5,946 nt of DNA, from IMG/VR virus record IMGVR_UViG_2667527717_000003. One strand, 5' to 3'. Positions 1 through 1,806 of the stretch are shown here, piece after piece. The translations under genes and the position numbers were made by a program. The notes below the pieces were generated by a model. That model saw only the letters and a list, made by a program, of their open reading frames with translations. It was not told where the DNA came from and ran no database searches. Position 1 is the first letter of the stretch. Each line of letters starts with the position of its first letter. Origin of the DNA: a virus. Lineage: Duplodnaviria; Heunggongvirae; Uroviricota; Caudoviricetes.

Positions 1-87
1 ACGTAACAGACAGCGGCTCCCGCAGTTAACGGTGCAGGAACTCCAGACCGCTTTCTCTTCTACCGGTACCTCTGCCGCTCGGACCAT

Positions 88-1200
88 TTGGGAAAATGGC
101 AGAGTGANNGCACNNNNNGNNNGNNNGAGCATCGGCATAAGAAGATTGCTGAGACGACAGGCTATAAGCCCGGTGCGGGACGTATTATCGAGCGTTTCGA
201 CGGGCGGTTTGAGATAAACGAATTTTATATGCCTGAGCATCCACGTACAGCGGATACAAGTAAGGTGTCCACGTTCCTTAATCATATGGCGTATCTGGTA
301 CCTGATGCCTGGCAGCGCGAGTTTTTCATCGCCCGTCTGGGGTGGATGGTTCAGCGTCCGGAGCGTCGATGCCCGATTTCTATTCTGCATGTGGCTTCCG
401 CACATGGTACGGGCAGAGGATGGGTCAGCCAGTTAATGGAGCGCGTGCTTGGTCCGTGGAACTGTGCTCGTACTCGCATGAAGATCCTGTGCGATAACCA
501 GTTCCATGACTATCTGTACAATACGCTTCTATGCACCATTGACGAGGTGCGCGAAAATGATAAGCGGTATGAGGTGAACGATAAGATCCGTGACGTGCTG
601 ACAGAACCACGGTTTGAAGTGAACCGCAAATATGGCAGCAAAAAAACGATGGATATATACACCGGCTTTCTGTTCTACACCAACCACTTTGATGCGCTGG
701 CGCTGCCAGAGGAAGACCGACGTATCGCTGTGCTGGGGGGCCCTGACTTCGCCGCAACTGAAGAGCATTACGCCAGCCTGTACGGTGCGCTAAGCGACAG
801 CGACTTTATCGCCCAGGTGTACTGGTATCTGATGGGCGTTGACCTGTCTCGCTTTAACTGGCAGCGCGCCCCCGAGACGAAAGAACGCCTTCTGATGATT
901 GAAAGCAATAAGAGCGATGTGGAGGCTGCTCTTATTGAAATCCTGGATAATCCGCCTGTGCCAGCAATGACTTATCAACAAATTGTTAACGCAATACTGG
1001 CAGAAGCAGGAATGGATGTAGAAATTAACCAGAAGCATATTACTCGCATTTTGAAAGAAAGAACAAAGCGGGAACCCGTACGCGTAAAAATTGACGGGTT
1101 TGTATATAGGATTTGGATTCTTGTAAAAAATAACGATTTCAGCAACGAAGAATTGCGCGAAATATATAAATCTTGCGAAATTTTGCAATCTGGATTGTAA
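88..1200 (+). CDS. P-loop NTPase with SF3-helicase-like motif order (D5 / P4-alpha primase-helicase C-terminal domain-like) and an AT-rich C-terminal putative DNA-binding domain; probable replication initiator/helicase. 5' boundary unresolved.
   Basis: 370-codon ORF ending at TAA 1198-1200. Glycine-rich loop HVASAHGTGRGW followed by a Walker-B-like hhhhDE block (LLCTIDEV) and a motif-C-like block (IRDVLTEPRFEVNRKYGSKKTMDIYTGFLFYTNH). Codon usage looks coding from ~128 onward. Start is uncertain: TTG at 88 has no obvious RBS, the first ATG is at 229, frame 1 has a TAA at 4-6, and frame 2 is open from the window start to 217 with N-masked bases at 108-127 in between. Confidence 0.6.
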   Translation: MGKWQSXXXXXXXEHRHKKIAETTGYKPGAGRIIERFDGRFEINEFYMPEHPRTADTSKVSTFLNHMAYLVPDAWQREFFIARLGWMVQRPERRCPISILHVASAHGTGRGWVSQLMERVLGPWNCARTRMKILCDNQFHDYLYNTLLCTIDEVRENDKRYEVNDKIRDVLTEPRFEVNRKYGSKKTMDIYTGFLFYTNHFDALALPEEDRRIAVLGGPDFAATEEHYASLYGALSDSDFIAQVYWYLMGVDLSRFNWQRAPETKERLLMIESNKSDVEAALIEILDNPPVPAMTYQQIVNAILAEAGMDVEINQKHITRILKERTKREPVRVKIDGFVYRIWILVKNNDFSNEELREIYKSCEILQSGL

Positions 1201-1202
1201 AA

Positions 1203-1466
1203 AGGTGACGGCTAGGTGACGGCAAAACGCTTAAGCGTCACCTTAAAAAGTATATATAAAACAATGGGAAATGTGCTAAAGGTGACAGGTGACGGCAGAA
1301 TTTAAAACTATATACGCGATAGTGTGTATTTTAGGTATTATACGATCGCTTATATATAGAGAACTAAAATCAACCGTCACCTGTCACCTAAAACATCTTC
1401 AGGCCTTATATGGCGCGCTTTGCAGCAGGTGACGGATATGTAATTACGCGTCACCTAGCCGTCACC
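1203..1466. repeat. Array of ten GGTGAC/GTCACC sites (extended consensus AGGTGACGG), five direct and five inverted, mirror-symmetric about position ~1335 and flanking an AT-rich core; candidate iteron/origin or multi-site operator region
   Basis: Direct GGTGAC at 1204, 1215, 1281, 1288, 1428; inverted GTCACC at 1237, 1376, 1383, 1450, 1461. The 17-bp block 1204-1220 (ggtgacggctaggtgac) is the exact reverse complement of 1450-1466; the 16-bp block 1280-1295 is the exact reverse complement of 1374-1389. AT-rich core 1296-1373 carries tatata runs. Spacers between mirrored sites are not themselves palindromic. Confidence 0.8.
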
Positions 1467-1515
1467 CGGAAATTAACTTGAAAAAATTAGCAAATAACTA
1501 AATGAGGATACGACG

Positions 1516-1806
1516 ATGTCAAAGATATTCCGCCAATGTATGCCTTACGGTATCCGCAAAACAGCTGAGGGGGCTTGGGAAGCATTCAACAGAGACTACC
1601 AGCCCTTAGGGGAGGCTTTTTTCTTCAAAAGAGCACTAACGCAGGCCACTCGAGATGTGTTGGCGCCACCGCCGGTAACTCAGCGCGACGACTGTGTATG
1701 GCTGTATAGCGATATCGAGCACCCGATGCACTCTGAGGCTTACTGGAAAGCGTATTGCCAGCGGCTTAAACATCTTTCTAACCTCAAAATGAAAGATGAA
1801 CGGTAA
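1516..1806 (+). CDS. hypothetical phage protein, 96 aa, function unknown
   Basis: ATG at 1516 preceded by GAGGA (1504-1508) at ~7 nt spacing; TAA at 1804-1806. Lies directly upstream of Q with a 25-bp gap, same strand. No family recognised by eye. Confidence 0.65.
   Translation: MSKIFRQCMPYGIRKTAEGAWEAFNRDYQPLGEAFFFKRALTQATRDVLAPPPVTQRDDCVWLYSDIEHPMHSEAYWKAYCQRLKHLSNLKMKDER

Follow-up and report, generated by a model that had tools for sequence, protein, structure and literature searches.

The stretch of viral DNA IMGVR_UViG_2667527717_000003 (IMG/VR; Caudoviricetes; 5,946 nucleotides, analysed as a whole and hereafter called the window) raises the question of why the 3' end of a replication gene and the DNA immediately behind it are together so poor in G+C (GC), and whether the two are exchanged between phages as a unit that sets origin specificity. 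The source element is a temperate, lambdoid-type Escherichia coli prophage. Over positions 130-1830, identity is 100 % both to four induced coliphages (vB_EcoM-606R2 and relatives) and, in a comparison of 1,701 bases, to a 13.7-kb prophage stretch, L002 (window coordinate = L002 coordinate minus 5871). Of 5,426 complete E. coli genomes, 46 have chromosomal prophages which match these positions. It is very probable that positions 1203-1467 are the replication origin of this prophage, that positions 967-1197 encode the origin-binding winged helix of its own primase-helicase, and that the specificity of the pair is modular. By analogy with the satellite initiators discussed below, the C-terminal domain would bind the repeated sites (iterons), and the origin would melt and support autonomous replication; the co-variation of the wing of this domain with the iterons, together with the conservation of the sites, is the support which sequence comparison offers.

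Iteron array downstream of the primase-helicase gene

An array of GGTGAC sites had been predicted behind the gene, and ten such sites were indeed found within 1204-1466, compared to 2.15 expected in the whole window; none of 200 shuffles reached the observed total. As 8-mers, the ten sites read GGTGAC(G/A)(G/C). They are arranged around an AT-rich centre as follows:

1203-1243: left outer iteron group, with sites at 1204 (+), 1215 (+) and 1237 (-), the first of them starting 4 nt past the stop codon
1280-1295: left inner pair of overlapping iterons, at 1281 (+) and 1288 (+)
1296-1373: AT-rich centre of 78 bp (GC 0.27) with a (TA)n tract and the dyad axis at 1334.5-1335; presumed melting site
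1374-1389: right inner iteron pair, at 1376 (-) and 1383 (-)
1427-1467: right outer iteron group, the mirror of the left outer group, with sites at 1428 (+), 1450 (-) and 1461 (-)
1467-1515: right flank, also AT-rich (GC 0.31) and extending to the next gene, with a further mosaic joint right after the origin, at about 1480-1500

All five mirror pairs share a midpoint at 1334.5-1335.0, giving an exact two-fold symmetry with five sites per side, and the least stable 40-mer within 900-1600 starts at 1327. The central (TA)n tract (window 1351-1357) varies in length between loci, being longer by 4 in L003 and by 6 in L030, and shorter by 2 in L031 and L033.

Primase-helicase and its C-terminal domain

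The array directly follows the gene of a 753-amino-acid protein, the start of which lies 1,061 nt upstream of the window. Pfam identified a Prim-Pol domain (PF09250, aa 75-185) and a DUF5906 domain (PF19263, aa 487-595; 55 bits, cutoff 27.6) in this one protein, whereas no Pfam family matched its last 85 or so residues. The closest solved relative by sequence was the helicase region of the NrS-1 phage primase-polymerase (phmmer E 4.1e-8). An AlphaFold model of aa 440-753 (predicted local distance difference test score, pLDDT, 87.9) was matched by Foldseek to NrS-1 (E 6.1e-16, template modelling score 0.68), the African swine fever virus (ASFV) PrimPol, poxvirus D5/E5, and PriRep1 and PriRep5 of Staphylococcus aureus pathogenicity islands (SaPIs), and the protein is therefore a D5-like superfamily 3 (SF3) helicase. 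The origin-binding domain of the P4 alpha protein (1ka8) was not listed in a sequence search of the PDB with the full-length protein. The parts of the gene within the window are:

1-1200 (+): Prim-Pol + DUF5906 (SF3, D5-like) primase-helicase, 3' part, aa 355-753 of 753; full gene at L002:4810-7071
397-723 (+): DUF5906 helicase/NTPase core, aa 487-595 (Pfam); GC-normal and 98-100 % identical among E. coli alleles
967-1197 (+): C-terminal winged-helix domain, aa 677-753 (predicted fold), presumed origin-binding; the low-GC block begins here
1030-1065 (+): recognition helix H3, aa 698-709, QKHITRILKERT, predicted from secondary structure
1066-1119 (+): loop and beta-hairpin wing, aa 710-727, KREPVRVKIDGFVYRIWI; 54-58 % nucleotide identity between types compared to 96-100 % upstream
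1120-1200 (+): domain tail, comprising the end of the last strand, the C-terminal helix and the stop codon; GC 0.31, 86-98 % identical between types

A run of N or otherwise ambiguous bases at 108-127, within the helicase gene, is unambiguous in L002.

Concerted switching of wing and sites in E. coli

The gene and the array were aligned for seven, and later eleven, E. coli alleles. Three allelic types (A, B and C) were found on helicase backbones which were 97-100 % identical. Identity remained at 97-100 % from the start codon to window position 1037 or 1067, was 54-72 % from there through 1466 and, in L003 and L004, returned to 100 % from 1467 on. All ten sites switched together: type A alleles have sites of the GGTGACGG kind, type B alleles GGTGGCAG and type C alleles GGTAACAG. 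Within a type, 6 of 234 site columns were variable, compared to 58 of 591 spacer columns (p = 2.4e-4). When 45 genomes were compared, they fell into discrete identity bands of 30, 9 and 6 for the three types, with no intermediates. As judged from the alignments, the three specificity classes sit on near-identical backbones through recombination at about 1038/1068 and at 1467, and not through a breakpoint near 950 as had been predicted.

The coding stretch of lowest identity, 1068-1119 (54-58 %), encodes the loop and wing, the only protein segment which always tracked the site sequence. Its 18 residues are presumed to be the specificity determinant. The recognition helix occurs in two haplotypes (RILKER and KLLREK), neither of which tracks site type; L003 and L004 differ in this helix and have the same wing and the same sites. 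Both of these loci are natural chimeras with the type B wing and sites, which are combined in L003 with the helix haplotype of type A and the tail of type C, and in L004 with the helix haplotype of type C and a tail of a third kind. The tail (1120-1200) recombines independently of wing and array: that of L003 (type B) is identical to that of L006 (type C) at the protein level and 98 % identical in DNA. Since the tail lies between them and recombines, the exchanged unit consists of two co-selected pieces, the wing and the array, rather than one unbroken block. The proposal that the C-terminal domain and its sites form a swappable specificity cassette thus stands in that wing and sites switch together on near-identical genes, and that their pairing recurs across genera; it does not stand as regards a single contiguous block.

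A megablast match ending at about 939 was considered as the predicted breakpoint and was rejected, as it reflects an IS1 insertion which truncates the gene in L001 (E. coli VL7S7). IS600 and IS2 follow the IS1 at the equivalent of about 939 in this locus, which is probably a decayed, replication-dead prophage. An iteron-like TTGACGG is present in the wing-coding DNA (1089-1097; 1092-1104 compared with 1430-1442). It was rejected as an iteron, having no co-variation with site type and reflecting conserved Asp-Gly codons, and is probably a coincidence.

A second mosaic joint is found in the primase-helicase gene upstream of the window (aa 1 to about 330; protein P0046). At this joint, E. coli proteins which share a 97 % identical Prim-Pol N-terminus run into an unrelated VapE-type helicase with another C-terminus. 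In other relatives (P0030, P0041) the DUF5906 helicase and the C-terminal domain are retained and the N-terminus differs. P0030 and P0041 were considered as Pri-Rep proteins of phage-inducible chromosomal islands (PICIs), and this was rejected, their contigs being full prophages with PolA, SSB, nuclease and Q genes together with lysis or capsid genes.

Base composition of domain and probable origin

The original prediction had reported a sharp GC drop over 950-1515 and quoted the peptide encoded by the AT-rich gene end. The peptide was correct, and a two-change-point likelihood scan placed the low-GC block at 966-1530 (0.375 compared to 0.521; twice the log-likelihood difference 40.4), about 15 nt from the predicted coordinates. 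GC was 0.528 in 240-949, 0.361 in 960-1200, 0.400 in 1201-1515 and 0.518 in 1516-2254, with 0.492 in the window as a whole. The lowest-GC 240-nt segment of the 13.7-kb L002 was the 3' end of the gene (0.354), and 0.56 % of 566-nt segments were as low in GC as 950-1515, every one of them overlapping that region. The drop held in the sliding-GC and codon-position checks, GC at the first, second and third codon positions (GC1/GC2/GC3) falling from 0.59/0.42/0.56 in the gene body to 0.45/0.27/0.34 in the 3' part (Fisher p = 3.8e-4 for GC3). Because GC3 also fell, the composition of the Lys/Ile/Asn/Glu-rich peptide was rejected as the only cause. Hidden sites cannot explain the low GC of the coding part either, since the search for hidden or degenerate iterons there gave none beyond one match with two mismatches.

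The best surviving alternative holds that the whole low-GC block of about 950-1515 came recently, by horizontal transfer, from a donor of low GC, and that this block is the unit which is swapped. It has in its favour that the left change point (966/967) coincides with the first codon of the winged-helix domain, M677 (window 967-969), that the fall in GC3 goes beyond amino-acid-driven positions, and that allele divergence is 28-46 % inside the block compared to 0-3 % outside. However, positions 960-1037 are equally AT-rich (GC 0.35, GC3 0.27) and 100 % identical between specificity types, while the joints lie at 1038/1068 and 1467 and the tail is exchanged on its own. Domain GC3 was below gene-body GC3 in 19 of 20 homologous loci, in hosts with gene-body GC of 0.42-0.65, so that the low GC is an old, maintained trait of the family and no scar of a recent swap. 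In addition, searches with the C-terminal domain alone, of a word-indexed set of 5.8 billion proteins and exhaustively by phmmer of 1.84 billion representatives, gave only fragments or members of the same primase-helicase family, the exception being a 1,537-amino-acid protein (P0133) matched over 28 residues only. As these searches gave no sign of the domain in other protein families, unrelated initiators included, the swapping is among alleles of one family. A recent acquisition is thus unlikely, and the interpretation of the GC drop as the footprint of the cassette was not upheld.

Low GC is a property of the entire module of domain and origin, and is seen throughout the family. Candidate causes of the synonymous AT-richness are a meltability or bendability of the origin which extends into its flank, a mutational bias of origin-exposed DNA, and an old accretion kept AT-rich by exchange. 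A compositional step and recombination joints need not coincide, which calls for caution when one is used to place the other.

Pairing of wing and sites beyond E. coli

A genome scan yielded 21 loci from Enterobacterales, Pasteurellaceae, other Gammaproteobacteria, Alphaproteobacteria and one metagenome-assembled genome (MAG) of Planctomycetota. Most of them have 6-10 copies of a locus-specific motif straight after the stop codon. The offsets of the sites from the stop codon (about +4, +15, -37, +81, +88, -176, -183, +228, -250 and -261, the sign giving the strand) are nearly constant in E. coli, Serratia, Izhakiella, Erwinia and Xenorhabdus, and a partial version with six sites occurs in a Cardiobacteriaceae MAG. 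The hexamer itself differs among loci (GGTGAC, GGTGGC, GGTAAC, GGTTGC and more distant variants). In a distant, high-GC homologue from a Devosia MAG (L022:5600-6500) the C-terminal domain was present and no repeat array was found downstream. The copies from Arsenophonus endosymbionts (L023, L025) are pseudogenised, with short open reading frames (ORFs).

In every one of the loci compared (about 35, from several genera), wing and sites were of matching class, and the wings grouped by iteron type, not by host. The wings of E. coli type C and of Serratia, both of which go with GGTAACAG, are 84 % identical, compared to 54 % for their tails. Sites were also predicted from wings in advance and new loci then fetched: as predicted, Salmonella P0008, with a type B wing, had GGTGGCAG sites, and Salmonella P0020, with a type C wing, had GGTAACAG sites. 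P0024 has a B-like wing and GGTGGCAG sites. Two new classes were found, GGTGTCAG with ...xT(N/Q)RFW wings in four loci, and GGTAGCAG with a ...VPQRFW wing. There are at least eight matched wing/iteron classes across Enterobacterales, the co-varying parts being aa 710-727 and the central iteron bases (GGT-NN-C-N-G). No single residue-to-base code applies, as Xenorhabdus reaches GGTGGCAG sites with a quite different wing.

Such co-variation could in principle be hitch-hiking, with wing and iterons inherited together because they lie only about 90-400 nt apart and the domain not reading the sites at all. Besides this proximity, the small number of E. coli alleles (three classes) and their relatedness would fit such an explanation. 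It is nevertheless very improbable, since the shuffled tail haplotypes reveal recombination between wing and sites, which are yet always matched, and the same pairs occur in E. coli, Salmonella and Serratia despite different domain flanks. Moreover, all ten dispersed sites share one change while their spacers drift, and selection by a common reader is therefore required.

Other possible roles of the array

Other phage proteins were found as identical copies in loci of unlike site type. CI WP_001046700.1 is shared by types B and C, Cro WP_000016208.1 by A and C, and both Q WP_001244506.1 and the downstream ORF WP_000034494.1 by A and B. CI, Cro, Q and this ORF are therefore excluded as readers of the sites. 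No Rfam family matched the array at threshold, the sub-threshold matches to miRNA precursors reflecting the long inverted repeat, and a scan of the array for promoters and terminators gave no match above chance. A 47-amino-acid ORF (1289-1432) was not accepted as a gene, since it is disrupted by indels elsewhere among the alleles. That the array is an operator, partition or packaging site of another phage protein, or encodes an RNA or small protein, is the least probable explanation, hardly to be credited despite its place in the early-right operon, with the replication gene on one side and Q on the other, its long inverted repeats and this small ORF, given the results above and a layout which is that of experimentally demonstrated SaPI/PICI origins (PMC9371898, PMC6092414).

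Mechanism and comparison with known systems

If the array is the origin and the winged helix its reader, the working principle is one already known from the SaPI/PICI Pri-Rep-ori replicons, P4 alpha, pRN1 ORF904 and, in concept, the O/ori variants of lambda. By analogy, each hexamer of the SF3 helicase would bind the five iterons of one half-origin through its C-terminal winged helices, and two hexamers would load head-to-head. The AT-rich centre would then melt, allowing the helicase to load itself, and the fused Prim-Pol domain would prime. The Rep proteins of SaPIs and PICIs provide the mechanistic precedent (PMC9371898, PMC6092414).

The SaPI/PICI Pri-Rep-ori replicon is the closest known system, and by mechanism the prophage origin would be of the same kind. 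The initiators of these elements are self-loading hexameric helicases with a fused or adjacent primase and a C-terminal winged helix which reads short iterons. Their origins lie directly 3' of rep and have 6-12 iterons in two sets around an AT-rich melting region, in opposite orientations on each side, and origin specificity is allele-dependent (PMC9371898, PMC6092414). The examples compared were SaPI1, SaPI5 (PriRep5) and SaPIbov1 of S. aureus and EcCICFT073 of E. coli. The prophage likewise has a helicase with a fused primase, a C-terminal winged helix and a probable origin directly 3' of the gene, and Foldseek gave matches to 7pds and 7ola (E about 1e-7). However, identity of the prophage protein to SaPI Reps is only 12-14 %, and its ten sites are in strict positional two-fold symmetry. 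As a mobile element it is not a PICI, since it is a full prophage and no satellite: lysis and terminase genes are present in the window, head and portal genes in L002, and relatives carry PolA, SSB and capsid genes.

The helicase region of NrS-1 gp28 (PDB 6k9c, 6k9e, 6lrb), the closest solved relative, has the same order of Prim-Pol and SF3 domains, and the Foldseek alignment to it extends over about 328 columns and includes the C-terminal domain. Identity is 18 %, and neither an iteron origin nor specificity alleles were found for NrS-1 in the literature examined.

The prophage shares with lambda the order cI-cro-replication-Q-lysis, and the original prediction had invoked the mosaicism of lambdoid replication modules. 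A Pfam domain search found no O or P homologue, and the protein belongs instead with the Prim-Pol/SF3-helicase initiators represented by SaPI/PICI Pri-Rep and NrS-1. The lambda O/ori variants follow the principle that, among related phages, the DNA-binding part of the initiator and its iterons change in step, with recombination as the means of exchange. The binding domain is N-terminal in lambda O and C-terminal in the prophage protein, and the prophage iterons lie outside the gene, 3' of the stop codon, whereas an O-type initiator has them within its coding sequence and is accompanied by a P-type DnaB loader. No DnaB loader would be needed, because the prophage initiator is itself helicase and primase.

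The order of SF3 helicase and winged-helix domain is also that of P4 alpha. P4 ori and crr carry iterons which are bound by the C-terminal domain of alpha. The primase of alpha is of the DnaG/Toprim kind, whereas the N-terminus of the prophage protein is a Prim-Pol (archaeo-eukaryotic primase, AEP) domain. In alpha, primase, SF3 helicase and C-terminal winged-helix origin-binding domain are on one polypeptide (PMC2777425). ORF904 of pRN1 consists of Prim-Pol, SF3 helicase and C-terminal winged helix, with an essential non-coding region just 3' of the gene (PMC2777425, PMC4234260); it differs in its archaeal host, in that no specific site was demonstrable, and in that no such iteron array has been described for it.

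By gene content, the prophage gene order fits the Eru10 region of Shiga toxin (Stx) phages, where a PF09250 primase-polymerase stands alone in the interval from cI to Q (and stx) (Fagerlund et al. 2022, PMC8951638). That classification is of gene content only, and the words 'iteron' and 'origin of replication' are absent from the paper. The locus L004 has stx2b downstream of Q, whereas the window is without stx. A literature search found no paper linking DUF5906 with iterons.

Prophage context

In L002, a CI-like repressor, a Cro-like helix-turn-helix protein, the 753-amino-acid DUF5906 protein, a 96-amino-acid ORF and the Q antiterminator are followed by holin, lysozyme, a spanin-region ORF and the small terminase, all four of which lie inside the window, and then by a 540-amino-acid ORF in the position of the large terminase, a DUF1073 (portal-type) gene and a head-morphogenesis gene. 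The leftward operon of L002 encodes a DUF2800 nuclease and a DUF2815 protein. The gene immediately after the origin is:

1516-1806 (+): 96-amino-acid ORF of unassigned function, 3' of the origin; GC back to normal, no Pfam match

Other small ORFs take this position in some alleles, irrespective of site type, at least three alternatives (96, 76 and 139 amino acids, with no assigned function) being found 3' of the array.

In phages with this module (L034:1-3898, L036:475-5791 and L002:1-1569), the leftward operon encodes a DNA polymerase of family A, a nuclease of the DUF2800/PD-(D/E)XK type and an Enc34-type single-stranded DNA-binding protein. Together with the primase-helicase these genes make up a nearly self-sufficient replisome, which is unusual in lambdoid gene order.

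In L004 (E. coli JNEC-KY171, type B) the stx2b A and B genes and a tRNA-Arg gene are located downstream of Q (L004:4962-6197). The equivalent region of the window, about 2255-2768, has neither stx nor tRNA and consists of 500 nt of non-coding, AT-rich DNA which includes a terminator-like hairpin (2660-2681).

Significance

A likely origin and an origin-binding domain are assigned here to an uncharacterised replication module, the DUF5906 primase-helicase of "Eru10" type. About 1 % of the complete E. coli genomes (45-46 of 5,426) carry the module, as do Stx2b-converting phages, and it therefore bears on how induction amplifies toxin genes. An origin layout thought to be peculiar to PICI satellites occurs in full prophages too, this prophage family being the counter-example.

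The main value of the family is as a clean natural system for origin specificity, in which the principle is known and the phages are uncharacterised. It offers a natural experiment, with near-identical proteins about 18 residues apart whose origins are one to three bases per site apart, so that specificity should be testable by few swaps.

A wider interpretation is plausible but more tentative. The family may represent a natural collection of origin/initiator pairs, each orthogonal to the others, with at least eight specificities swapped by recombination. In these pairs the central GGT-NN-C-N-G bases would be read by the wing (about 18 amino acids), mainly through its second strand, aa 721-725. 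Full temperate phages, Stx2b converters included, may also have PICI-type origins in common with the satellites, and may perhaps have been their source. If the pairs are indeed orthogonal, a possible benefit to the phages would be the avoidance of cross-initiation, or of hijacking, by co-resident prophages and satellites.

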